Source: Macrostomum lignano
Lineage: Eukaryota
Length of the DNA stretch: 64,000 bases
Assembly: GCA_002269645.1 (NCBI GenBank)
Contig: NIVC01000757.1
Location: 385,127-449,126, forward strand
Direction: 5' to 3'
In this document: positions 7,747 to 64,000 of the stretch, piece by piece
Position numbering within the stretch: position 1 is the stretch's first letter
Layout of the letters: every line of letters begins with the position of its first letter
Position numbers and translations under genes: made by a program
Notes under the pieces: model-generated
Seen by the model: only the letters and a program-made list of their open reading frames with translations
Database searches by the model: none
What the model was told of the DNA's origin: nothing

Positions 7747-10700
7747 TTACTCAGCCTCAAAGAACTCCAACAGAGTCTGTAGATCGTAGTTCTGCAGGCA
7801 TTGCATCAAAGCTGAGACTCTGGACTTCACATTCTGGCCTTGAAATTTGAACTTGTCAATGTAGAGATCCGTGATCATGCCTGCGGTGCATTGGATAGGA
7901 TGCTGAATTAGTGCATGTCATGGGCGTATCAGAGTACTGTTTAGTCGCATTGCCGCTAGTATAGCCGCTCAGATGATTGAGTAGACACTAGCGATGATTG
8001 AGTAGACACTAGAGATGATTGAGTAGACACTAGAGATGTTTGAGTAGACACTAAAGATGATTGAGTAGACACTAGAGATGATTGAGTAGACACTAGAGAT
8101 GATTGAGTAGACACTAGAGATGATTGAGTAGACACTAGAGATGATTGAGTAGACACTAGAGACGTTTGAGTAGATACTAAAGATGATTGAGTAGACGCGT
8201 AAAAGGATTAAAAGATTATGTAGGTATGAAAAACAGATTGGGTAGAAAGTATATCGTAAAGATTGAGCAGACGCATGATAAGATTGAGCAGACGCATGAT
8301 AAGATTGAGCAGACGCATGATAAGATTGAGCAGACGCATGATAAGATTGAGCAGACGCATGATAAGATTGAGTAGACGCATGATAAGATTGAGTAGACGC
8401 ATGATAAGATTGAGTAGACGCATGATAAGATTGAGTAGACGCATGATAAGATTGAGTAGACATTGAAACGTACCGTAGAGTCTCTCCAGGTGAGCTGGCT
8501 GCCTTTTGAACAGCCTCTGAAGCTCGTCGGCCTCCAGGAGGATCTGCTGAAACTCTTCGGATAGAAACTCGGCAGACTGCTCGCTGAGCATGAGCTCGCG
8601 AAGCGGCTCGATTAGGGCCACCCGCTTGGCCAGGTGTAAAAGCGACTCAAGTTTTGGAGCAATTAATCTAATTGTATGACTGACTGACTGGTCATTTACC
8701 TGCGAAAGAAAAAAATTTGAGAATCACATCTTCTCTGACTGAGGAGCAATTTAATTAACCCTTATTTTTTGTTCAAGAGCAATAAAACAAGTCCCTTTTA
8801 GGGCCATTCTAGCAGTCATAGACGCATGCGGGTGCAACCATAGACACATAAGTGCAGCCATAGACACACAAGTGCAACCATAGACACATAAGTGCAGCCA
8901 TAGACACACAAGTGCAGCCATAGACACACAAGTGCAGCCATAGACACACAAGTGCAGCCATAGACACACAAGTGCAGCCATAGACACACAAGTGCAGCCA
9001 TAGACACACAAGTGCAACCATAGACACATAAGTGCAGCCATAGACACACAAGTGCAGCCATAGACACATGAAGTGCAGCCATAGACACACAAGTGCAGCC
9101 ATAGACACATGAAGTGCAGCCATAGACACACAAGTGCAGCCAAAGACACATAAGTGCAGCCATAGACACACAAGTGCAGCCATAGACACATGAAGTGCAG
9201 CCAAATACACACAAGTGCAGCCAAAGACACACAAGTGCAGCCATAGACACACAAGTGCAGCCATAGACACACAAGTGCAGCCATAGACACATAAGTGCAG
9301 CCATAGACACATAAGTGCAGCCATAGACACACAAGTGCAGCCATAGACACATGAAGTGCAGCCAAATACACACAAGTGCAGCCAAAGACACACAAGTGCA
9401 GCCATAGACACACAAGTGCAGCCATAGACACATAAGTGCAGCCATAGACACATAAGTGCAGCCATAGACACATAAGTGCAGCCATAGACACACAAGTGCA
9501 GCCATAGACACACAAGTGCAGCCATAGACACATAAGTGCAGCCATAGACACACAAGTGCAGCCATAGACACACAAGTGCAGCCATAGACACATAAGTGCA
9601 GCCATAGACACACAAGTGCAGCCATAGACACACAAGTGCAGCCATAGACACATGAAGTGCAGCCATAGACACACAAGTGCAGCCATAGACACATGAAGTG
9701 CAGCCATAGACACACAAGTGCAGCCAAAGACACATAAGTGCAGCCATAGACACACAAGTGCAGCCATAGACACATGAAGTGCAGCCATAAACACATAAGT
9801 GCAGCCATAGACACATAAGTGCAGCCATAGACACACAAGTGCAGCCATAGACACATGAAGTGCAGCCATAGACACACAAGTGCAGCCATAGACACATGAA
9901 GTGCAGCCATAGACACACAAGTGCAGCCAAAGACACATAAGTGCAGCCATAGACACACAAGTGCAGCCATAGACACATGAAGTGCAGCCATAAACACATA
10001 AGTGCAGCCATAGACACATAAGTGCAGCCATAGAACATAAGTGCAGCCATAGACGGTATGGTGCTCCAAAGCAACTCAGCCGTTTTTCTTGCCTATTTAC
10101 TTAAAAGATTTTTCAAGCTTTGAAATTCTCTAGCGACGACATCATAAACGTTTACTTGTATGCCGCCTTAAAATTGAGTGAAAAATGTTTTAACGATAAA
10201 CAAATTCACTAACAAAAAACTCACTTCGTATCCAATTTGCAGCGCAATTTTTCTCTTTGTTGCCTCTTTGCTAAGGCACTCCTTAATAATGGAGATTGTG
10301 GACAGATTGTCGGACCGGAACACTGCTTCGCCTTTCTTGTACCTGGCTTCGAACTGCGTGCCCAGGAAGGTGTTCTCAAACACGAGCCAACCGGCCTCGT
10401 CGGCTGGCGCTTTCTCTGGCACCTCGCCAACTAGAAAAGCAACCCAGTGATGAATTTCAGCCAGAGAGAAGGCCCCAGTGAGAGTCAGACTATTCAGCGG
10501 TCGGCTCTCATCAAGTTCGTGGGCTCGTCTGTGCAGCGACAGCGGCTTGATGTGATAGGCCAGCAACTGGCAGACCTTTGGCTGCAGTCTGGGCGTCACG
10601 TAAGCCATGAGAGTACCGTAGTGACCTTCGATTGTGCGCACTTTGATTTCCAGTCTGGTTGTGTTGGCCTGACACCTGGTTGCGAATTGTGGGGGTGGCG

Positions 10701-13700
10701 TATGTTTTAGCTGAAGTTTTTGAGTGATTTGAGCAACTTGAACCCTGACTGCAGGTACAGTATCCTGTGTACTGACTGAACTCTATGTACAGTGTTTTGT
10801 GTACTAAAAATTAACTATATGTACAGTGTTTTGTGTACTAAAAATGAACTCTATGTACAGTGTTTTGTGTACTAAAAATGAACTCTATGTACAGTGTTGT
10901 GTGTACTAAAAATGAACTCTATGTACAGTGTTTTGTGTACTAAAAATGAACTCTATGTACAGTGTTGTGTGTACTAAAAATGAACTCTATGTACAGTGTT
11001 TTGTGTACTAAAAATGAACTCTATGTACAGTGTTTTGTGTACTAAAAATGAACTCTATGTACAGTGTTTTGTGTACTAAAAATGAACTCTATGTACAGTG
11101 TTTTGTGTACCAAAAATGAACTCTATGTACAGTGTTTTGTGTACTAAAAATGAACTCTATGTACAGTGTTTTGTGTAGTGCTTACTAGATTAGTTCTGTG
11201 TACTATTCTGTGCATTCGTCGGTGTACTAATTGACTGCATACCATCAGAGTATCATCAAAACTATATTTGTTTTAAAACAAATTCCAACTCTGAGTTTTT
11301 ACAAGCAAACCCAACAAGAAACGAGCTTTGATGAAAATTGGTTTGATGTCATCAAAAACCATCTCGCAGACCAAATGACTTACTGAGCATTATATTGAAA
11401 TTTTCATGCGGCCAGCCTTTTGATTTGCCAGGATGCAAGAAAAGCAATATTGGAAAATGCTGAATATGTCAACTCTCATCCAACCTCAGCTGATTGCATG
11501 GCTTCTGTCTTTGATGTAGAGATCTCCAAATACGGTACAAAGTAAACGACTATAAGTAGTAACGTAGTAGCTGGAACAGCTAAGCGAGGCTACATCTCTG
11601 AGGAAATAAATACCGTTCGGTAAGCCCTTGTTCGAGCCTTTGTTATTTGGGTTTATTGAGAGCGATTTTATTGCCGGCCGTTACTGATCAGTTGATTTAT
11701 GAGTTCATTGAATTTGAGGCCTCCCATTTTCCTAAGGGATTGGATAGGATCTGCGGACCGATTCCGATACCCTTAGAGGATTATCGATTTGATTGATTTT
11801 GTTATCCTAGATTAACCGATAGGAGCACACGACTCCGATTCCGTTAGTTCTAGAAGAAGACGCCCTTTCTGGAGGACCTCGTATTGTTATAGAAGTTGAT
11901 TTTGTTATTAGGGCACATCGCTGACATTGTACTCGAGTCGACTCGATTTCTGCACTCGAGGAACACTGCGACGTCGATTTAAATGATACGCTCTAACTTT
12001 CGGCCGATTTTAGAAATCAAGAAGACTACTCAGAAGAAAGAAGCTTCAAGGAGACGAGCTCTACAGACGCGCGCTACAAAGAAGAGGAGCCCGCAACAGT
12101 AAGTGATCACTGACTTTGTTCCCAGGCTTAAGTGCCTGGAAGTGGGAATTTTCGAGTGACTGATCACCACTCGATCAAACTCTTCATTGAGAAGCGATTT
12201 GCTACTGTTTATTGTAGCTTCAAGTTTTGAGAATCTTGAGGGAGAGCGGAGAGGCAGATTCAAGGATCTTGATGGAGAGTGGAGAGCCAGATTCAAGGAT
12301 CTTGGTGGAGAGCGGAGAGCCAGATTCAATGATCTTGGTGGAGAGCGGAGAGCCAGATTCAAGGGTCTTGAGGGAGAGCGGAGAGACAGATTTAAGGATC
12401 TTGAGGGAGAGCGGAGGGGCAGATTCAAGGATCTTGGTGGAGAGCGGAGAGCCAGATTCAATGATCTTGGTGGAGAGCGGAGAGCCAGATTCAAGGGTCT
12501 TGAGGGAGAGCGGAGAGACAGATTTAAGGATCTTGAGGGAGAGCGGAGGGGCAGATTCAAGGATCTTGGTGGAGAGCGGAGAGCCAGATTCAAGGGTCTT
12601 GAGGGAGAGCGGAGAGACAGATTTAAGGATCTTGAGGGAGAGCGGAGAGGCTGAATCAAGGACCTTGAGGGACAATGGAGAGGCAGAACGTAGGACTAAA
12701 AAAGGATGACGCTCACCTGTAAGTGGCCAGCAGGTGATTTCCTTCGTCAGGATTGACAGCGCTGAGACTGACCACGGCGGAGTTCTTTTCGGTGTCCATG
12801 ATGTCCACCGGCACGTCCGACTGCAACAGCAGATTGTCGATGGGCGCCTGACACTCGATAGTCAAGGTGTACGCTGCGTCCACTGGCGTCAGGATGAAAC
12901 GGTCGTTGATGTCGAAGAGAGGCACCGAGGACACTGCGTTGCCTTTGGTTGACATCGTCTGGTATTTGTCACGCTCCTTCTCCACCCTCTGCTGCAGCTG
13001 CCCGATCTCCTCTCTGTTGAAGTTTAAAAAATGATTATGGACTTAATTGGCATTGACACAATGAAATATGAATATGCTAGCTGCCCCTAAACTACGACGT
13101 AATGTAGAAATGGAGCTGTGACCCTTACTGCACAAGCAGTATTGTACATAGTCGTTATAGATGCACCGCACAATTGGCGGTAGGTTTCTTAAAAAAACAA
13201 CAACAAAATAACCCCATAATAGGGTCTGATACACGTAGCAGCGTTACAGAGGCACCTCTGGGCTAGAGCGAGAACAGAAAAATCTGGGCCTCGACGTTAA
13301 GGCCCCAACTCCCAATGATGCCGGACCTGCTGGTTTCCGCCAACATGGCGGAGTACCGCGACACGAAAGCTGCCGTGTCAACAACAACGGACGGCTTATC
13401 GGACTTTTTCGAGGCGCTTGTCCTGGATGATTTCATACATATAAAAATGTATTATATTCATAAATTTTTAACAAGGTCAAATTTTATTGAGAATTAAAGT
13501 ACAAATGGCCATTTTTATGAGAAGCCACTCAATTCCATTTCTTGCTGCGGATCGGCTATGCTCGCGTCCTTTCCAACCTATTTAAAAATGCTCAATTATA
13601 GTCATCGGGAGAACTACCTGAGTCCGTCCAGCTTCCCATCGCCAGCTCCCGCAGAGCTCGTGGCCACTCCAGCCGCATCTGCACCAGTTGAGCTCTCCAG

Positions 13701-15274
13701 CACGGCGCGCGTCAAACCGAAAATCCAGCCTAGATTGAATGGTTTTCAAGTGTACTTTTATTTGCTTCCCTGTACTTAATCAGTGCACTTTTACAAGAAA
13801 AATAAATGTGGCATGTGTTAATTAAAGTATCTCTAGGAGTTATGAATAGAAATTTAGTTTTTGCTGATTAAAGTAGTGACTCAAATTTGCTTTTTTAATA
13901 CCGGGTGCTAATCAGCTTATGGTTTGCATTGCTTTTTAGAAAAAAGAAAGGACTCGATTTTTTTATGGATTTTCTCTTAGTGGGCGTAGATTAAAAAACT
14001 TTATTCTGGGTACGGAGTTTTAGCAAACTGCATATATATACTTATAGCTTCCATTAAGAAGGCATTAGTAGACAAATTCAATCTGGCAATATACGAGTAT
14101 ATACAATACATAGCTGTCTATGGCACGATATAAATTTAGTTTCCATTAAGAAGGCATTATTCTATGGCCTACCAGAGCCTACAATCCTTGATTGTCCAAG
14201 GAACGCCATTATTCCAGGCTTCCAACGCGCATTTCAACCATAGACAAAACAGTTTATTTAACAGAAGTGACGATAAATACACTAGGCAATTGAGAATATG
14301 CTCGTACATACATGTAAATATAAAATATGCGTATAACCTGGCCCTGCCTTAGAAAACAAATCCATTAAAGAGTCTTTAGTCTAGGAAAATCAGTCTATGG
14401 TCAACCGTATACCCTCTAACTCTTCCCTTTTGTCTTTCTATCCAAGCTCTAAAATTGTCTATGGTCAATCCTTTGAGACAATTCTAAGCGGTACGCAATG
14501 AAAACATCTACGCGGTACGGAATGATCGGTACGCAATGATCGCGGGACTCGTTTAGGCCATAGAATAATGGTAGATTGTGTAGTATGCATTAGCCTTGAA
14601 TAATGATCGCTGTCACGAGTGGCGAAGCCACTCAACGTTTAAGCCACTCATACACCACTCATTGTGTCATGCTGTACGCTCATTATTCCACGCTTAGGGA
14701 TCATTATTTTAGGCTTCTAAAAATACATTCATGAGACAATGTGTTTGTGTATATGGTTTTGTCATAGACAATGATAAATTTTAGTCACTCGTGGCTTCGC
14801 CACTCGTGAAAATTTTATCATTGTCTACCTCCAAAACCATATACACAATCTATCATTAGAGGACAAATTCAATCTATAAGAGGATATATATTGCCAGGAC
14901 AGCTATAGACAGCTTCGTTCACGCACAAATTTTCAAAATGCGAGCGTATGTTGCACTTTTGCAGAATAAAAGCCGATTATAGTCTATGGTTAAAAGATAG
15001 AAAACAAAAAACAATTATTTAGAGTGTGACAACTCTTTTGGCCATAGACATCCACAGTGGTCTGGCTGACTGACTTTGTGCTTTGCCAGTTTCGTATATA
15101 CCAAGGACAACTTAATAGTTAATAGTTAATAGTTAAGAGTTATTAAGTTGTCCTTGGTATATAAGTTATATATATAAGTTACATATATATAAGTTATATA
15201 TATATAAGTTATATAATATAATATAATATATAATATAATATAATATAATATAATATAATATAATATATATATAT

Positions 15275-15310
<36 letters not shown>

Positions 15311-18300
15311 AATATATATATAATATAATATAATAATATAATATAATATAATATAATATATAAGTTATATATATAAGTTATTTAGTTGTCCTTGGTATAT
15401 CCGTATATACCAAGGACAACTTAATAACTCTTAACTACGACGTACACACACAAACCCACAGACAAATCATTTTTAGTATATGGACTAGCAATCTACGCCC
15501 CCCCCGCTGGGGAGGAACAAAGAAAGGAATAAATTTATTTTAATAAACTACATGTACATGTAGGTTTTGACCTTGTAAATTCTCTATTTTTAGTTTCCAA
15601 AAGAAATGACATTTAAAGCAAAAAAGATTCAGCCCTTGTGAGCTTTTAGATCAGTATCCCCTTGTGAGCTTTTGCATCAAAGCCTCCCTTTAAGCCATGG
15701 CTGAACCCTAATTCTCCCTTTGATCTACCTGCTTGACCTACCAACAACTTCTAATTGGCCCTTGGCATCTCAGCAACCCCCCATTAGCCACAGCATTTCA
15801 GCGATTCACCCCGTAAGACTTGACATCTCAGCTCATTTGAGCTAATAAACTTTTGCATCAGACTTGGTAATAAGACATATTTGACCCGCCCATTTGCAAG
15901 AGGAACTCCTGAAGTCTCCGAAAGCCTTAACAAGAAATTGCATATAAGAAGCAACATTGATATTGACTTGTGCATAGGATAAAAAACATTCATCAGTGAA
16001 TCGTAGGTACGACTAGCAGTCTGTGATTTCTCGTAATACTGGATCAATGAACAAACATATATCAATGATCTGGACAAATCCAGCGCACTATATATAGAAT
16101 TTTTTCCATTAGTATTTAACAACAGATTTTAGACGAAAGTCTGCAAGTAGGATTGGATTGGCCGCCTGCATGGCCTATTTTTTCTCTGAATATTTGATTT
16201 TTTATTCTCGGTGAAAAGCACATTCGTATGACAGACTCCGGCCCTCTAATCCTCCTCATAAATTGAAAGGCGCAGAGCAGGCAATGCTGTTTCTATTTTT
16301 ACTTTGTATAGCAGTCTGTCATGAGCATGAGCACTGAAGTCACATGTTTTCAAATATTCAATGAGTCCCTCAGAAAAATTTTGATTTTTTATTTATGTTC
16401 GACTATGCAGATTGTCATGTCAGTCCTCAGTTCCAAGTAGTCAGTCAGTCAGTCAGTCAGTCAGTCAGTCAGTCAGTCAGTCAGTCAGTCAGTCAGTCAG
16501 TCAGTCAGTCAGTCAGTCAGTCAGTCAGTCAGTCAGTCAGTTAGTCAGTCAGTCAGTCAGTCAGTCAGTCAGTCAGTCAGTCAGTCAGTCAGTTAGTCAG
16601 TCAGTCAGTCAGTCAGTCAGTCAGTCAGTCAGTCAGTCAGTCAGTGCGTCAGTCAGTCAGTCAGTCAGTCAGTCAGTCAGTCAGTCAGTCAGTCAGTCAG
16701 TCAGTCAGTCAGTCAGTCAGTCAGTCAGTCAGTCAGTCAGTCAGTCAGTCAGTCAGTCAGTCAGTCAGTCAGTCAGTCAGTCAGTCAGTCAGTCAGTCAG
16801 TCAGTCAGTCAGTCAGTCAGTCAGTCAGTCAGTCAGTCAGTCAGTCAGTCAGTCAGTCAGTCAGTCAGTCAGTCAGTCAGTCAGTCAGTCAGTCAGTCAG
16901 TCAGTCAGTCAGTCAGTCAGTCAGTCAGTCAGTCAGTCAGTCAGTCAGTCAGTATGCATCAGGCAGACCAACAATTCCCAAACAGTAAGCATTAAAACAA
17001 ACCTCCATAGGTTGAGCAGACGATTTCGTCGTACGATTTTTCGTTCACGACTCCAACGGCCATCGCTGTGATTGTCTCGTTGCAGTTCTGTTTGGAGGGT
17101 TGATAGGAGGCGGAAAAATTTCGTGCCTAGTAATTTTTTGTCCATTAAAATTGCGCATAAAAGAAAAGCGAAGGCGGAGACAAGCAGCTGTTACAAATTC
17201 ATTGAGTTACGTTCGGGAACCTCAAATTTTCTTCAATTACTAAATTAGGAAATCAGAAAAGTTTTCGTGGCATTGCAAGCTACAACATCTGTTCGTGTTG
17301 ATCGGTGTTGAGACATCTGCCTTCCAATTTTTTTCTATAAGCACTAATCAATATGCGCTGGCGCATTTCTGTAAAAAGGTGACAGATTCATCGGGGGAGG
17401 ATCTTAAGGGGGCAAAGGAAGTGCAGATTCAGAGGAGTTTATCGAGGGGGAGGATGCTGAGAGGTTTCTTCTGCTGTCAATCCTCCAATTCCAGTTTTGC
17501 ATCAAAAAAGAGTTTTTCTATAGCTCATCTAAATGATATTTGTCGCGAGTCTTCTACCCAAAGTACACCATGACGACCTAAAAAAGTGCAAACTAGTACA
17601 ACTCACGTAGGACCAGCGCAGCACAGGTTTATCGTGAATGTCATAGGCGTAGACCTCCACGCTGCCATCCTCCCTGGCAACAATCAGGTCCAGCATGCCG
17701 TCTCCGGTGATGTCGTAGCTGTCTATGGCGGTGATTCCTGCCGAGCTCAGGTCGCTGTTGAACACCCACTCGAGCTCGGGGTCGGAGCCGCAGAGGCGCA
17801 GCAGACCAAGGGACCCGTCTTCGGTTCCAAATAGAACTTCGTCGCCATTCTCGCCGCCGTTGTTGTTGTAGAGAGCCAGGACAAGTGGAGAGCCGGGTAG
17901 GGACACCTCCAGTGTGATCTGGCAGTTCTGCGAGGGCAAGGGTCGGCAAACTTAGTCGGCAATAGGGATGAGGAGATAAAATGTGAGATAATGGAGGAGA
18001 TGAGAGGGGAGAGGATTGCTATTTTGACGTTTCGAATGACCTGAGAACCAGATAGACTGCGATCCAGGCCAGAAGCGAGCAATGGGGATCAAATCCTCAT
18101 GATTTCTATTGGAATGGGATCAAATCCTCATGATTTGTATTGGAATGGGGATCAAATCCTCATGATTTGTATTGGAATGGGATCAAATCCTCATGATTTG
18201 TATTGGAATGGGATCAAATCCTCATGATTTCTATTGGAATTGGATCAAATCCTCATGATTTGTATTGGAATGGGATCAAATCCTCATGATTTCTATTGGA

Positions 18301-50886: not shown

Positions 50887-51158
50887 AGTAGTATAGAAAA
50901 AGACGCTTCTAGACCCAGAGCACTTTTTTAATGACCGTTTTAAGGGTCTAGAGGGGGGACACGGGGGGGTAAATAAAAAAACACATCTAAACACCCTTAA
51001 CACATCTAATCACCCATAATCACCCCTAACAATAAAAATCACATCCCAACACATCCAAACACTCCCCAACACCCCCCTCGCGTCCCCCCTCTTAAGACCT
51101 TACAAACGGTCATTAAAATAAGGTCTGATCTAGAAGCGTCTTTTTCTATACTACTACT
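50887..51158. repeat. Polinton terminus folded as an imperfect ~85-bp inverted repeat around a G-free spacer
   Basis: AGTAGTATAGAAAAAGACGCTTCTAGA (50887-50913) is exactly reverse-complemented at 51129-51155, and similarity continues for ~60 bp more. Confidence 0.9.
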
Positions 51159-51808: not shown

Positions 51809-53416
51809 TTAGTTTGCAGATAATATCTGATTCTCATAAAAAGAACCCAATATTTCTTCACCATCCTTATCAGCAATTATATAGGTTGTAGGATTTGTAT
51901 TTAAAACTTTACTGATGGTAAATTTCTCACTTATCTTCCAATATCCTTTTCTTCCCTTTTCAAACTTATCTTTCCATTTATAGATATAAACAGAATCACC
52001 AACTTTAAAACCTTTAGTTTTCTTTTTTTCAAATTCTCCAAAAGTAACCTTAACATTTTCAGGTTTGTTATAAGCTTGTTGAGGAGTCATCTTTATAGCT
52101 GAATGATATGAATTGTTATAATCTTTCACTACGTCTGGTAATATTTTTACCCACTTTTGGTTACCATTAAGACTAAACTGAAACCATAATTTCTTACCTA
52201 AAGTTCGATTAAATCTTTCTATTAATGCGTTTTTACTCTCTCCATAAATAGAATAAATTTTATTAATATACTCCCCATTCGCGTCTTTTTTCCTTTCTTT
52301 TCCTTTTTCAAAATGATACAATTTATACATATGAGGATTGTAAAATTCTTTTCCTTCATCAACACACAATCTTTCGCTTTTTTCTCCAAGATTTCTAAAA
52401 GCAGCAGCAACCTCCTCTCCTTTTTTGGATTTTAAAGGAACAGCCCACGCGTATCGAGTAAAACCATCTAGTATGGTTAAGATATATTTATATCCTCTTT
52501 CATTTGGCATCGACATTAAATCAGCATACCAAATTTCATTCTTTTTGAAGGTCATGATTTTTCTATAAAATTTAGGTTTTCGGTATTCTTTATGAAGAAC
52601 CTTTGCCTCATCAAAACTTAGCCCACTACCACTTAATAACAAACACTCAACACAATTATTTCCATGTTGGTTGTAATTAATTCCCAAACCAAATTTAACT
52701 TTAGACTGCAAAATCTTTTTAACCATCCATCTAGTTAATTTTTGACCTACCGATAATCCCTGTAGGTTATCTAATCCTTGAATCATTTTTCTATCGGCTT
52801 CATGTTTTAATCTTAATGCTTCCTCGGGTGAGTTCTTATCAGCATCTCTGTATGCTAAGTCATGATAATATGCTAACCAGTCAATACCATTTATTGGAAT
52901 TGAATCAGATTTTGGAGTGTCATCAGGATTTAATCTCAAATCTAAGCGAGTGCCGGGTAGTTTACCCTCAATCTTTCGAATGAGGCTGGAGCACACCTTA
53001 AGCGGCGATAATTACCGCCCATCTCCGTCTGCTCTCTGAACCTTCTCCTTATATTTAAAATACTTAGGAGCTTGGCTGCGCATTGCCACCATGTCTTCAA
53101 GCTTTTTACCATCGAACCATAGGTTCGCGTGCAAAGCACGATTGGGAAGAGGAGTTACCTCTGTTCCTTCAAAAGATTTCTCAATTGAAGTGGTACTTGA
53201 AGCTGTATGACGGGTTTCACGCAATTTGGAGATGTCGCCACAAATAGTGACTAGCAAGGACATTGCCTTCCTCACTCAGGCCACGGGTTAACCTGTGAAG
53301 TTCATTGATGGTAGGTGTAGTTCCCCTGTATATTTACCAGTAGTAAAGATTGGTGGTAAGCTTGTTAATCCTTTTTGAACATCTAACAATCCTCCTTCAA
53401 ACACTATTTGGTTCAT
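51809..53416 (-). CDS. Phospholipase A2 (parvovirus-like, PLA2X)-integrase fusion, ~424 aa, split by a group I intron (exon 1 53416-53291, exon 2 52957-51809)
   Basis: Spliced protein: MNQIVFEGGLLDVQKG...GELHLPSMNFTG|PGTRLDLRL...PINGIDWLAYYHDLAY...HEADRKMI (PLA2 Ca-loop and HDxxY), then rve core WYADLM...ILDGFTRYAWAVPLK...LCVDEGKEF...IERFNRTL, then the Polinton C-terminal FKVGD...FEKG...W...GSFYENQI. Confidence 0.9.
52958..53290 (-). ncRNA. Group I self-splicing intron, IC1-like, 333 nt, no internal ORF
   Basis: Folded by hand. P1 with U.G at the 5' splice site (ACAGGU/GCCUG); P3 CAUCUCC/GGAGAUG; P4 UGCGUG/UGCGCA; P5abc with A-rich bulge and GAAA loop; P6a/b with CCUAAG...UAAGG receptor; P7 G-A(bulge)-GAGCA/UGCUCC after AAGGUUCA and UAAGGUG; P8 GGCGGUAAUUAUCGCC; P9 with GAAA loop; P9.0 AG/CU. 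Removing it restores the frame and the conserved GPGT motif. Confidence 0.92.
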
Positions 53417-53966
53417 TTTTAATAGCCTTAAAAATACATGAAAGCACCAATTGTTTTGCAAACTCTTCAATGGTTGGTTGTTTAACTTTTTTATAGTTAT
53501 TATCTACGCTAGTTAAGTATCTTTTATTTGTCCAATGTTCAGACTTTTTCATCTGATCTTCATCTTTGTAACTAAACGAAGAAGCGGGAATGAAATGATC
53601 AATATCTAAATTTCCAGTATAATCTTTTGAAACATAATATTTTCTTGTGAAATTTAACCAATCAAAAAAGAATTCTTTTGTGCAATCAAGATATGAGATA
53701 TAGTCCTTGTCATTAAAATTTTTCAACGCCCAATTTATTCTATTTCTAATTAAAACAATATGTTTGTAATTATCATCATTGTGATACTTGTTTTTTCTAT
53801 ATTCATTAAATTTATCTTTATTGTTTTTCATCCAAATAGTAGATGAGGTATTATGACAAGATCGACAATCATTTCTAAATTTTTTTGAATCATTTCTCCA
53901 AAAATAAAATTCTTTCGTCATTGGTTTTTCTTGTTTACACTTAATACAAATCTTTTTAGGTTCCAT
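53397..53966 (-). CDS. Free-standing HNH endonuclease with N-terminal zinc ribbon (NCLDV/phage homing-endonuclease type)
   Basis: CIKC...CRSC; basic helical linker; YLDCTKEFF..WL; LDIDHFIPASSF...HWTN..YL...DN..K. The stop codon overlaps the PLA2-integrase ATG region by 20 nt. Confidence 0.8.
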   Translation of the reverse strand: MEPKKICIKCKQEKPMTKEFYFWRNDSKKFRNDCRSCHNTSSTIWMKNNKDKFNEYRKNKYHNDDNYKHIVLIRNRINWALKNFNDKDYISYLDCTKEFFFDWLNFTRKYYVSKDYTGNLDIDHFIPASSFSYKDEDQMKKSEHWTNKRYLTSVDNNYKKVKQPTIEEFAKQLVLSCIFKAIKNEPNSV

Positions 53967-53993: not shown

Positions 53994-54665
53994 TTAAACT
54001 CCAGTATGTCCAGCAGCTTTCGCAGCAGCTAAAACAAGTTTTCGCGGTGTTTTAAATCCATCACCAACAGCTGGTTTGTTATTTATAGAATTAACAATCC
54101 ATTTATACAAGCTGGTATTTTTAACAGCTCCTCCTAACGCATCATAAAAAATTCTAGCACTTATTAATTCATCCCTAGTATATAAATCAGGGTTAAACTT
54201 TACCCTAGGGTTCATAACAATATTATATGCTCCACCCAATTCTGTATATAGTTCATTCCGATTTTTATCAACTCCACCAATTCGATAATTATTATTACCT
54301 AAATCTGTAACAGCAATACTAGTTGGTGCAGGTCTCGGATATTGTTCAACTCCACCCCTAATCTCTTCACGTCTAATTTCTGCAACTCTAAATATTGCTT
54401 GATCAGTCTCATAAGTAGGCGGCTCATCTAAAAGTTCATCCTCTTTTGGCTCAGTATTTTTAGCAATTTTTTCCAGAAGATCTTTATCTGTTTTTTCTAG
54501 TTCACTAATTTTCCCAGTAATAGGCTTAACAAAAGGAGCAGCAAATCTTTCACCAGCTAATTGTATTCCTAACTTTCTTTTTTGTAAATTTCTAACAAAA
54601 TCAGAATATCTTTGCTTCTCTTTATAAATCGCTAACTCTCCATCAACGTCCATAAATTGACTCAT
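53994..54665 (-). CDS. Polinton hypothetical protein (223 aa)
   Basis: Intact ORF divergent from the capsid gene; coiled-coil-like N-terminus with FVKPIT. Confidence 0.7.
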   Translation of the reverse strand: MSQFMDVDGELAIYKEKQRYSDFVRNLQKRKLGIQLAGERFAAPFVKPITGKISELEKTDKDLLEKIAKNTEPKEDELLDEPPTYETDQAIFRVAEIRREEIRGGVEQYPRPAPTSIAVTDLGNNNYRIGGVDKNRNELYTELGGAYNIVMNPRVKFNPDLYTRDELISARIFYDALGGAVKNTSLYKWIVNSINNKPAVGDGFKTPRKLVLAAAKAAGHTGV

Positions 54666-54699: not shown

Positions 54700-56171
54700 A
54701 TGGCTGAAACAAAAACTATGTGGAGTGATAAATTTCATTTCAAAAAGCACCGACAGTATATTAATGAGGTCAGAGCAAGAGATTTAAATTATACCCTACC
54801 AACAAGTGATAATTCAAATAACTTTACTACTGGAACGGTAACTTTTGACATCGGCGCAACCAACACTATATTGGATATGAAAAATGCATTTTTCCGTGTT
54901 AGATGGTTGTATACTAGAAATGATGGAACTGCTCTTGCAGCCGGAGATATCGCAGATCGATCCGGAATAATAATAGAAAATGATTGGTTTTATAAATGTT
55001 TTTCCCAAGCTCAACTAACTGTTAATGGTGCTGAGGTTGAGACATCATCAAACCCCGCAGAGATTAATGGAGTTTTGAAACATTTAAATTATACTTATTT
55101 ATCAAAACAAGTTGGTGATAATGTTGGGTGGATGCCGGATAAAGGTAACGGTCAAGCAGTAGTTTTCCCTAATGTACAAAACGCAGCCGGTGCAGATACT
55201 GCAGCGCTAATTGTTTACCTTAATACAAACATAGTTCCAGTTGTAACCACTATGACTAATACAAAAGATATTAATACTGGTTTTATAGATCGTCAGAATA
55301 AATTCCCAGTCGCGGTTTTAACCACAGCAACAGCATATGAGCAGGACTTTTCAATCTTTCCACTATTTGGGTTTTTCTCACCAAATCGGGTATGGAAAGG
55401 ATTAAAATTTGGGATACAGTTGCAAATATCTGGTGGATATCAGCCTAGGATACTTTATGGAACCTCAATTTCAACCGATATAGCAGTTCGTATAGATTCA
55501 ATTCAATTAGTCGTACCAACTATTGAGGTAACAGCCCCACTTTTAAAACACATCGATAATCAGTTAACGCATGATCAGGAAATATTTTATTTGAATCGTC
55601 GACATTTTATGCGAACCATTAATAATAACCAGGATTCATTCCAGTGGCAAATACTGACATCAAAACGTCGGGTGAGATATATTTTTGTTTGGTTTAAGAT
55701 AACAAATAGAAGGAGTAAAAGAGCAAATGGGGATTTATATTGGCTTCAATCCGGTGCCATAGCAGAACAAGCAGCCACCGCAACAGACAATGCGGCTGCA
55801 GCTATTAACGAGTTTAATGTTCAGAATATCCGCCTGCAGGTTGATGATCAATATTATCCGGTTAAAGACCCCTAAATTTAAATATAGCAAATAATAATGT
55901 TAATGATTTTATAAAATATTATCAAGATTATGCTAAAAATGAAGCGTATGCCGTCCCTCAGTACACACCCACAGAGTTTCTAAACATTCATCCAGTGGTT
56001 GTTTATGATCTAACGGCACAGAAAGAAAACGTAGCCAATATTGGACTTAATTATATGTTAGAGATTAATAAAACTGGTAATCAGGCACTTGACGCCCACG
56101 TATTGTTTCTAGAGGAATATATGTCAATTGCTAAAGCTGATGGCACGATTGTTCGGGACGCCCCGCTGTAA
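54700..56171 (+). CDS. Major capsid protein (double jelly-roll, hexon-like); one frameshift at ~55868
   Basis: F.I...N..LDMKNAF...FSQAQL.VNG.EVE; DQYYP then, in the -1 frame, PLNL...YYQDY...EF....PVVVYDL..Q.E...AHVLF. Confidence 0.8.
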
Positions 56172-56220: not shown

Positions 56221-56981
56221 ATGGTAAAGGCAAAACACGATAAGATATTTCCAAATGATCCTTTTCTTTGTTTAGTAATCGGAGGATCAGGTAAAGGAAA
56301 AACACACTTTGTTTACGATTTATTAACAACAGATGGAATGTTAGACTATAATAATTTAATAATTTATACTAATAAACCTAGAATAAAATATTATGAATTT
56401 CTTAAACATGGATTAAAAAACAAATTAAAAAAAGATGTCTTGTTTAGAATGTTAAGAGCATATGAGCAATATGAGGATGATGACGAACCGCGATTTAACT
56501 CGATGACATTGAGGATTTATGTAAAACAATGGCACAACAGCCAGAAAACATCACCGAACGAGCTCCAACTGTTAGAGTATCAACCCGATTAGCCTATGAT
56601 CAAATTCCAAAACATGATAAAACACTAATTATTTTTGATGATTGTATTAATGACGGTGATCAAGAATTGCAAAAGGAAATTTTTGTTAGTGGTAGAGGAG
56701 ATGGAATTGGAGCTTTTTATCTAACACAGTCCTTTAGAGAATTAGAATCGATTATAAAAAAGAATGCAAGTTGTTGTGTAATGTTTGATTTAGATAATTA
56801 TGATTTACAAAATATTCACGCTAGATTTAATCCCGGGTTGGATGCAAAACCATTTAAAAGTATGTGTAAAAAAATTTGGGATGATAGCCAATACAAACAT
56901 ATTTATATCAATCCGAGGTTAGAAAGGAAAAATCGAATCTTAAAAGATCTTATAAAAGAAGACGATGAGGAAGAAGAATAA
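56221..56981 (+). CDS. A32/FtsK-like genome packaging ATPase; frameshift at ~56495
   Basis: Walker A LVIGGSGKGKT; Walker B LIIFDDC; GR..GIGAFYLTQS...IIKKNA. Confidence 0.9.
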
Positions 56982-62726: not shown

Positions 62727-64000
62727 TTAATTTTTTATATCTTTTTCATATTCTAGAAATGTATTATATTCACAATCACATTCGGATTCACAATCACAAT
62801 CGTAATAATAATTATTTATTGCCTCTTTGTATTCATTATATTTACTTATTATATCTTCTTTTTGTTTTTTATCTTTTATCATATTTTTTATCTCTTCTTT
62901 TAAACCATATGGATATGTTTTAATTTTATCATCTAAATATCTTTTATCATCAAATGGACTTAATGTTTTTTTATCTGTCTCGATGACAAACATCTGATGC
63001 TTATCTGAATTTAATCGATATTGTGGAGCATGATAATTTTCAATTGTATTAAGGTAATCTAAAAGTACGTTTTTATAATCATCAAATGTTATCTTTTTTA
63101 CTGCTGCTCTTGATACCCTTTTATTTTTTTTACCTCTCCCTCCTGTCCTAAAACTTAAATGCATAGCATTTTGATCTTATTGCTATAAACTCGGTTATGA
63201 TTTTGCTATTTAATTCATCTTTCATTTTAAGTACAACTTTTTATTTTGATTCGATTTTAAGGATGGTTATCCGGATAGTCGAGGTCCAATGTATCCTTAA
63301 TTTTTTCCATATCTTTATAGACATCGAACTTTGGTTCGCGGGCTTTGCCCGATCCTCTGTTTCAACCTTAAATACCAAACTGTCGGTGTCTGCATATATT
63401 GGATAGTTATCTGGCCATGTTTTATTTATAACATCATAATAATATTCATACATTACTAGCTTTGCAAATCTAAAACAACCATTCCAATAAATATTGGTTT
63501 AAGAAATTTTGTTGTTTTATTTCTCATATGAATACCCATAAAGTTATCATCAAATTTTATAAAGTCTTTAAAGTTAGGTTTTGAGAAATATTTCTTTGCT
63601 TTATCAATATCCTTTTCTAAATGGAATTGGGTTCTATCTCTAATATTTTCAACCGTTTTTCCATAAAAAGCATTATTCATTAATTTCCAATAATCTTTCT
63701 CAAAATTTGTTTTTGACATCTGTCTCTGATTTGAATTAAAGTCAATATATTTAGCTAACCAATCTTCCTCAATAAACGATATTGTTCGATGTACTTTAGA
63801 CACTTTTAATCCCTGTTTTCATAAAATTGTAGAAGCTTATAATGCACTACATAGTTTTTTTATCATGTAAATTTAATATTAATTTTTTTGTTGCTAGATG
63901 TTTTGCATTATCTGCTTTAAGATAATCTTTTGTGTTTGTGATAAATCATCTTCATTAACTGAACAATGCTCTGGAGCTAAAGGATATTTATATGTTTTTG
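62727..64000 (-). CDS. polB: Protein-primed family B DNA polymerase, C-terminal part (frameshifted, 5' part outside window)
   Basis: YPLAPE; KLILNLHDK; motif B YWKLMNNAFYGKT; KPIFIG..VLDL; motif C YADTDS; terminal KTLSPFDDKRY. Confidence 0.92.

Follow-up and report, generated by a model that had tools for sequence, protein, structure and literature searches.

In T7-like phages, free-standing nuclease genes adjoin resistant alleles that have no intron. Collaborative homing, in which such a nuclease and an intron act together, has been described for F-CphI and the psbA intron of cyanophage S-PM2 (accessible portions of PMC6083498 and PMC3984707). In the phage systems the nucleases cut intron-less alleles and repair co-converts the intron together with the nuclease (PMC6083498, PMC3984707 and PMC11296320, in the text available), and the pathway of Bonocora and Shub (2009), as described in the accessible parts of PMC3984707 and PMC11296320, leads from a free-standing nuclease to a mobile intron.

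Group I introns and HNH genes were reported from protist PLVs in 2025 and, in the portion of that report open to us, no mobility partner was identified (PMC12220804). An HNH domain lies inside the PolB of nematode Polintons (10.1101/2023.08.22.554363, available part), and the excerpts at hand of PMC11296320 invoke collaborative homing for helicase-nuclease pairs of entomopoxviruses and not for Polinton introns. The main text of PMC8502044, in the sections accessible, makes no mention of HNH, homing or endonuclease, and a 2013 review describes nuclear group I introns as confined to the rRNA genes of microbial eukaryotes (PMC3679873, in part). A literature search that left subscription journals and supplements, including the tables of PMC12220804, outside its scope brought up no account of animal Polintons with group I introns or homing.

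We describe here a Polinton copy lying at the end of a 64,000-nt stretch of DNA, referred to throughout as the window, together with its relatives in the genome of Macrostomum lignano. The best reading of these sequences is that one codon of a PLA2-integrase gene is a homing hot spot with exchangeable parts, and not the seat of a fixed pair of HNH nuclease and intron.

The PLA2-integrase locus of the window

Host genes fill the window up to about 50.9 kb, with exons that match the families 7tm_1 (E 3e-11), BBS7, WSC and F5/8 type C, and long tandem repeats lie between the BBS7 exons at 8208-17951. The 7tm_1 match, to the rhodopsin family of receptors, suggests an animal host. There follows the left part of a Polinton-type element, which runs past the contig end at 64000 and has its right end off the contig. 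The element gives family matches to the rve integrase (E 1e-7) and, weakly, to Pox_A32 (the A32 ATPase); the putative PolB and capsid genes, so labelled by their motifs, gave no family match. A 391-aa ORF, the ATPase and the PolB-like pieces (54700-56170, 56221-56981 and 62727-63719) are each split over more than one frame, through either decay or assembly error. An exon 2 search placed Polinton copies on more than 100 contigs, with secondary insertions in some, and for these reasons we regard the copies as chromosomal. The features of the locus are as follows.

50887..51158 (no strand): Polinton left end, with an AGTAGT start and a long inverted repeat found by eye, and a drop in GC
51809..52957 (minus strand): PLA2-integrase exon 2, the rest of the parvovirus-type PLA2 domain and the rve integrase
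52958..53290 (minus strand): group I intron A, 333 nt, without a nuclease ORF, with an empty P2.1 and a terminal A, not G
53012..53263 (minus strand): open frame across the ribozyme core of intron A, 83 aa, with an ATG start
53291..53416 (minus strand): PLA2-integrase exon 1, 42 codons, the first 20 nt overlapping the HNH gene
53397..53966 (minus strand): free-standing gene for a predicted zinc-ribbon and HNH (beta-beta-alpha-metal) endonuclease, 189 aa, intact, with no stop
53994..54665 (minus strand): upstream gene bounding the nuclease slot, 223 aa, of no known family

Exon 1 ends in the Gly codon GGT of a G-P-G motif, and intron A is inserted between the Gly and Pro codons of this motif in the PLA2 domain, its ends at 53290 and 52958 being set by three natural intron-less alleles. 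The PLA2 domain and the rve integrase form one frame of 423-424 aa in intron-less copies, and a natural uninterrupted allele matches PF08398 (E 7e-8) and PF00665 (E 7e-7). An integrase frame of 325 aa begins at an internal start codon of exon 2 (ATG at 52786), so that transposition might not need splicing.

Intron A exceeds the RF00028 gathering score, which is 50, with a match of 55.5 bits (E 4.6e-12) at 52967-53254; its folding z-score is -3.8. In the predicted fold the P1 helix pairs the exon end with the guide sequence, including a U.G pair at the 5' splice site, and the guanosine-binding pair in P7 appears intact. Among 82 intron-A copies (80 from family 1, defined below, together with C4341 and C3750) the 3' nucleotide is A in 53, G in 24 and unresolved in 5, and with an A in so many of them a good number may splice poorly. 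Among the loci surveyed (window 52958 and L001-L137), the terminal-A copies include a cluster 98-99% identical to the intron copy of the window. Copies with a changed penultimate base show no compensatory change in P9.0. Contigs from 4 of 24 public runs, the RNA status of which is guessed, cover the region and contain no exon-exon joint, a result that weighs neither for nor against splicing; further intron variants, with P2.1 sequences other than those read in the assembly, occur in contigs from these runs (loose ends at window positions 53248 and 53284).

The first-pass annotation of this DNA had described an intron with no ORF, which holds for nuclease ORFs but overlooks the 83-aa ATG frame at 53012-53263. 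This frame is probably not a gene. It resembles the read-through tail of P0003, a protein considered below (29 of 58 residues identical, or 50%), and may be the trace of a gene lost from P2.1 or a by-product of conserved RNA. Length variants of the P5 region (window 53111-53141 and the corresponding parts of other copies) differ mostly by 30 nt, steps which keep the frame open across the core.

The remaining structural observations of the same annotation stand. The 189-aa zinc-ribbon/HNH ORF is intact and, as we add here, has a full active-site motif; its overlap with the PLA2-integrase gene (ATG at 53416) measures 20 nt, and its stop lies 106 nt from the end of exon 1 and the splice site (about 105 nt had been given). 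The window does present a free-standing nuclease gene adjoining a gene whose group I intron encodes no nuclease. The N-terminal zinc ribbon has the form CxxC...CxxC (C7, C10, C34 and C37). In an alignment of 100 members of the HNH family, consisting of the window protein and 99 of the top 150 profile matches, no variation is seen at H124, N147, N156 and K159 and very little at D123, C34 and C37; the window protein has all of H124, N147, N156, K159 and D123, and carries Asp for a near-invariant Gly at position 94. Alleles at 55-93% identity retain the catalytic residues and, by our own count, 73 of 130 HNH rows are stop-free while covering at least 180 residues.

A profile built from six HNH alleles matched 14,432 proteins at E<=0.001, unlike a word-index search, which returned no match. 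The best PHROG match of the HNH protein is phrog_1035, endonuclease VII (E 9e-7), and a Pfam search with the window protein found none. Its predicted model (pLDDT 93.8) has strands at 120-124 and 148-152 and a helix at 153-159, and this predicted beta-beta-alpha unit, with the catalytic His, the preceding Asp and two downstream Asn, makes up the set of features by which we assign a protein to the HNH class. A Foldseek search of the model against the PDB gave nothing at E<=0.001, the top rows being Cas9 HNH domains, and with VIA-align the matches are weak, both to Hpy99I (best Z 5.3, rmsd 2.7 over 41 residues, covering residues 1-42) and to Cas9 HNH (Z 4.2, rmsd 4.3 over 76 residues). Judged by its motifs and its model, the product of 53397-53966 is an HNH-type nuclease that is predicted to cleave DNA.

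Occupants of the insertion codon and the upstream slot

A search with PLA2 exon 2 gave 437 candidates, of which we scored the 150 most similar to the window copy; 138 rows show at least 75% identity (family 1) and 12 show 69-71% (family 2). In family 1, 106 copies were read in DNA by motifs and 32 were scored by nuclease-to-exon-2 spacing; loci L174 and L176-L179 entered the last motif count only. The insertion codon carries an insert in 135 of the 138 family-1 copies scored: intron A in 80, intron B in 23 and an insert of uncertain type in 32, with none in 3, a number that may under-count intron-less alleles since candidates were ranked by likeness to the window copy. The spacing in the 32 copies so scored is 414-487 nt, against 113 nt in intron-less copies. 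One of the intron-A copies has the 3' half only and one is split by a transposon.

Several loci bear other insertions or rearrangements. Of the inserts within introns, one measures about 6.8 kb and has a 766-aa transposase-like ORF (L118:1000-7800), and another, of about 830 bp, is flanked by short terminal inverted repeats (L072:1140-1970). As candidates for a gene-carrying split intron we rejected C986, a transposase-bearing insert, L072, the insert with short terminal repeats, and C393, a 3' half alone with no 5' half within 10 kb upstream. In rearranged copies (L052 / L112:8563-9901 and L173:675-1900) a pX-like gene lies directly against either the 3' half of intron A or, where the PLA2 gene is missing, the HNH gene.

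The slot upstream of the PLA2-integrase gene is occupied in family 1 by the HNH gene in 98 copies, by a PD-(D/E)xK gene in 37 and by neither in 3, two of which have a 153-155-aa ORF beside an HNH remnant. This third occupant (L048:471-938, L074:1036-1497) is acidic and has no Pfam match (L048 tested); a portion of it is similar to the central part of the L042 upstream gene. The HNH gene is thus optional and not a universal core gene, as the annotation's co-spreading proposal had required: the slot lacks it in 40 of 138 family-1 copies, and none lies upstream in three copies of family 2.

Scoring presence and absence in this way did not reveal a one-to-one co-distribution of the HNH gene (98 of 138) with intron A. 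Among the 106 copies read, HNH is the nuclease in 59 of 78 nuclease-bearing copies with intron A, in 15 of 22 with intron B and in 3 of 3 with no intron, so that the first-pass proposal of a joint spread of HNH and intron finds no support in the form of a strict pairing. Nuclease type is independent of intron type: the ratio of HNH to PD-(D/E)xK is 59:19 in intron-A copies and 15:7 in intron-B copies (chi-square about 0.5, calculated by hand), counts which are not independent events, since near-identity is frequent among the copies and haplotype duplicates may be included. All four nuclease-by-intron combinations are present, and 132 of 138 copies combine a nuclease of either kind with an intron or an insert of intron size. 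One HNH allele of 54-58% identity is common to 12 of the 15 HNH-plus-intron-B copies, the other three having alleles 84-93% identical to the window HNH. Exon 1 of the window, beside an HNH gene, is the same as exon 1 of L031, beside a PD-(D/E)xK gene, and exon 1 alone is therefore unlikely to be the target of either nuclease.

Intron B occupies the same PLA2 codon with a core and guide sequence that differ from those of intron A (copies L072-L074 and L092-L111, for example L092:1660-2000). An Rfam scan of 20 loci missed it; RF00028 matches a short stretch with 31.9 bits (E 1.8e-6), and from this match, which lies below the gathering score, we class intron B as a group I intron. All 23 copies have a common 3' junction, at which no simple reading restores the usual motif, and the exon 2 codons of intron-B copies can pair with the guide region of intron B. 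Presumably intron A resembles subgroup IC1 and intron B subgroup IE.

The PD-(D/E)xK protein of the slot is Eco47II-like (below the Pfam cut-off, E 0.002). The same codon is occupied in family 2 by a related intron with a terminal G, whose P2.1 loop contains a PD-(D/E)xK ORF 67% identical (101 of 150 residues) to the free-standing protein; the finding gives strong support to the first-pass suggestion of homing at this site. At least 28 near-full-length copies of this intron-borne nuclease were present in the best 40 of 254 candidates scored, 17 rows being stop-free over at least 147 residues by our own count. The family-2 intron loci (L080:1186-2075 and L138-L165), with an intron of the classical mobile type, are polymorphic with intron-less alleles, and eight of nine family-2 loci fetched from the exon-2 search have no intron. 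Upstream of the gene, the three family-2 copies read have no HNH or other nuclease ORF. On the metagenome contig Ga0224502_10072777, a separate PLA2-integrase gene has an intron with a PD-(D/E)xK nuclease at the same codon, and seven of nine database homologues of the nuclease have a C-terminal extension, six of which read, by eye, like ribozyme core. Scans of viral_contigs with the PLA2-integrase, with P0003 and with the PD-(D/E)xK alignment detected no relatives.

Relatives of the HNH protein are also linked to introns. P0003, third among the best matches to the HNH profile, ends in a tail whose reading frame passes through a core resembling that of intron A, and appears to be an intron-encoded HNH protein. 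In IMGVR_UViG_3300033558_000171 an HNH protein with the same motifs lies inside a group I intron. In this locus (L169:1-2724) an apparent giant-virus capsid gene is interrupted by three or more group I-like introns, of which one contains an HNH of the family of the window HNH and another a GIY-YIG-like ORF, the capsid and GIY-YIG-like labels being putative assignments by motif. A DNA-pattern search yielded four viral loci, one of them with an Rfam intron, and none in metagenomes; in the Macrostomum lignano genome no HNH was found inside an intron among the 150 of 264 candidates scored in one search. Family 2, Ga0224502_10072777, P0003 and the viral-contig introns together indicate that both slot occupants come from families that live in group I introns.

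The three intron-less family-1 copies all carry the HNH gene, with an unbroken frame in L043 and L056 and one broken in a poly-A run in L042. At the insertion codon GGC is found in 9 of the 11 intron-less alleles read (all eight of family 2, and L056), whereas the intron-bearing alleles read have GGT; the near-identical intron-less copies L042 and L043 keep GGT. The intron-less alleles thus comprise two lineages with GGC and one with GGT. With GGC the U needed for the P1 wobble pair is lost, and the change may also block cutting; in L042 and L043, which have GGT, protection would have to come from the divergent exon 1.

Proposed homing and the alternative explanations

Taking these sequence patterns together, we think it somewhat probable that the PLA2 codon is a homing hot spot at which free-standing nucleases and introns are interchangeable and, by analogy with the phage systems, we lean towards the HNH enzyme cutting intron-less alleles, with repair co-converting intron and nuclease. 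The homing target would be the Gly|Pro-Gly codons of the Polinton PLA2 domain, and HNH, like PD-(D/E)xK, would nick or cut intron-less PLA2 alleles at or near the exon junction. Insertion of intron A or B would split the target site and so protect the element that carries it, and repair from a neighbouring or co-replicating Polinton would copy nuclease and intron together, while intron-less survivors would persist through sequence differences at the site. If any intron protects and either nuclease drives, recombination would have shuffled the pairs, leaving a loose partnership. Between the free-standing and the intron-borne nuclease, the direction of change may have been either way. With about 98% of sites filled, few targets are left within the genome, and an HNH gene that is intact despite such scarcity may mean that there is another target.

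A fuller version of the homing account is put forward more tentatively, and we hold it to be not quite probable: intron homing would be active in nuclear-integrated animal Polintons, two kinds of intron and two unrelated nucleases would contest one PLA2 codon, and one genome would hold all the stages side by side, a free-standing nuclease with a resistant allele, a nuclease adjoining an intron that has no ORF, and a nuclease borne within the intron, with most intron-A copies splicing with the terminal A.

The alternative that fares best is that the HNH gene homes without any intron, as a selfish gene that competes for the intergenic slot by cutting a flanking site in elements with another occupant; the introns would have spread earlier or separately by means of the PD-(D/E)xK nuclease, and the two parasites would lie close together through the use of the same conserved gene. 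The alternation of HNH, PD-(D/E)xK and the 153-155-aa ORF in one slot, the HNH genes beside intron-less alleles and the intact state of HNH where the intron site is nearly saturated all suit this account. We nevertheless consider it unlikely, as the alternative occupant, PD-(D/E)xK, is itself intron-encoded at the same codon, a close relative of HNH appears to lie inside a related intron, and exon 1 is common to HNH and PD-(D/E)xK copies.

It is distinctly improbable that the element has domesticated the nuclease, for instance so as to cut the DNA of rival elements or of co-infecting giant viruses, or to process the genome, with its position incidental. Retention of some nuclease in the slot by 135 of 138 family-1 copies would fit such a function, and the part of PMC12220804 available suggests packaging or interviral-competition roles for the HNH genes of protist PLVs; against this, two unrelated folds are interchangeable here, the three family-2 copies read have no upstream nuclease gene, and both nuclease families occur in group I introns.

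Very improbable, finally, is a relic, in which homing ended long ago or took place only in free viruses, HNH and intron are co-inherited, the terminal-A intron is decaying and the integrase is made from an internal start: the terminal A in 53 of 82 intron-A copies, the internal ATG that opens the integrase frame and the one divergent HNH allele common to 12 of 15 HNH-bearing intron-B copies agree with it, whereas catalytic residues are kept across divergent HNH alleles, all four nuclease-by-intron combinations exist, and a spliced anemone mitochondrial intron with a terminal A has been reported (PMC8146996, accessible portion).

Comparison with described systems

In what is apparently the nuclear genome of an animal, well over 100 intron copies interrupt a protein-coding gene, and candidate homing enzymes lie within or next to these introns. 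Should homing prove the right explanation, Polinton copies would recombine with each other as phages do, and the proposed route of mobile-intron formation could be studied in a single genome through a population of over 160 alleles. It would, further, supply two small candidate site-specific nucleases and a natural A/G polymorphism at the near-invariant terminal nucleotide of the ribozyme.

The introns of protist PLVs (PMC12220804, in the text accessible) resemble those described here: they match RF00028, are about 300-380 nt long and interrupt a protein-coding gene within an integrated element of Polinton type. Those introns belong to cryptophyte, rhizarian and chlorophyte hosts and lie in a short unannotated gene before the capsid gene, whereas here the PLA2-integrase gene is interrupted, the host is apparently an animal and nucleases are found in or beside the intron. 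The sea-anemone mitochondrial ND5-717 intron (available part of PMC8146996) is likewise a group I intron with a terminal A in an animal protein-coding gene; unlike it, intron A is nuclear or viral and is polymorphic for A and G. A parvovirus-type PLA2 domain in an animal Polinton is a feature in common with the PLA2X genes of adintoviruses, in which, according to the sections at hand of PMC8502044, the domain is fused to a pX-like domain; here it is fused to an integrase and interrupted by an intron.

As with F-CphI and S-PM2, the window has a free-standing gene for a putative beta-beta-alpha-metal nuclease beside a gene interrupted by a group I intron that lacks a nuclease. It differs in belonging to a eukaryotic endogenous virus and in the interchange of two nucleases and two introns. 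Despite its phrog_1035 match, the window HNH is without the CX2-4C..DHDH..CX2C arrangement given for F-CphI in the accessible part of PMC6083498, having DHFIP instead and cysteine pairs at the N-terminus only. The pathway of Bonocora and Shub has a parallel here, in that the same nuclease is found free-standing next to an intron that has no ORF and, at an identical insertion site, within an intron; unlike in that pathway, both states are found here within one eukaryotic genome, and the protein is an Eco47II-like member of the PD-(D/E)xK class.
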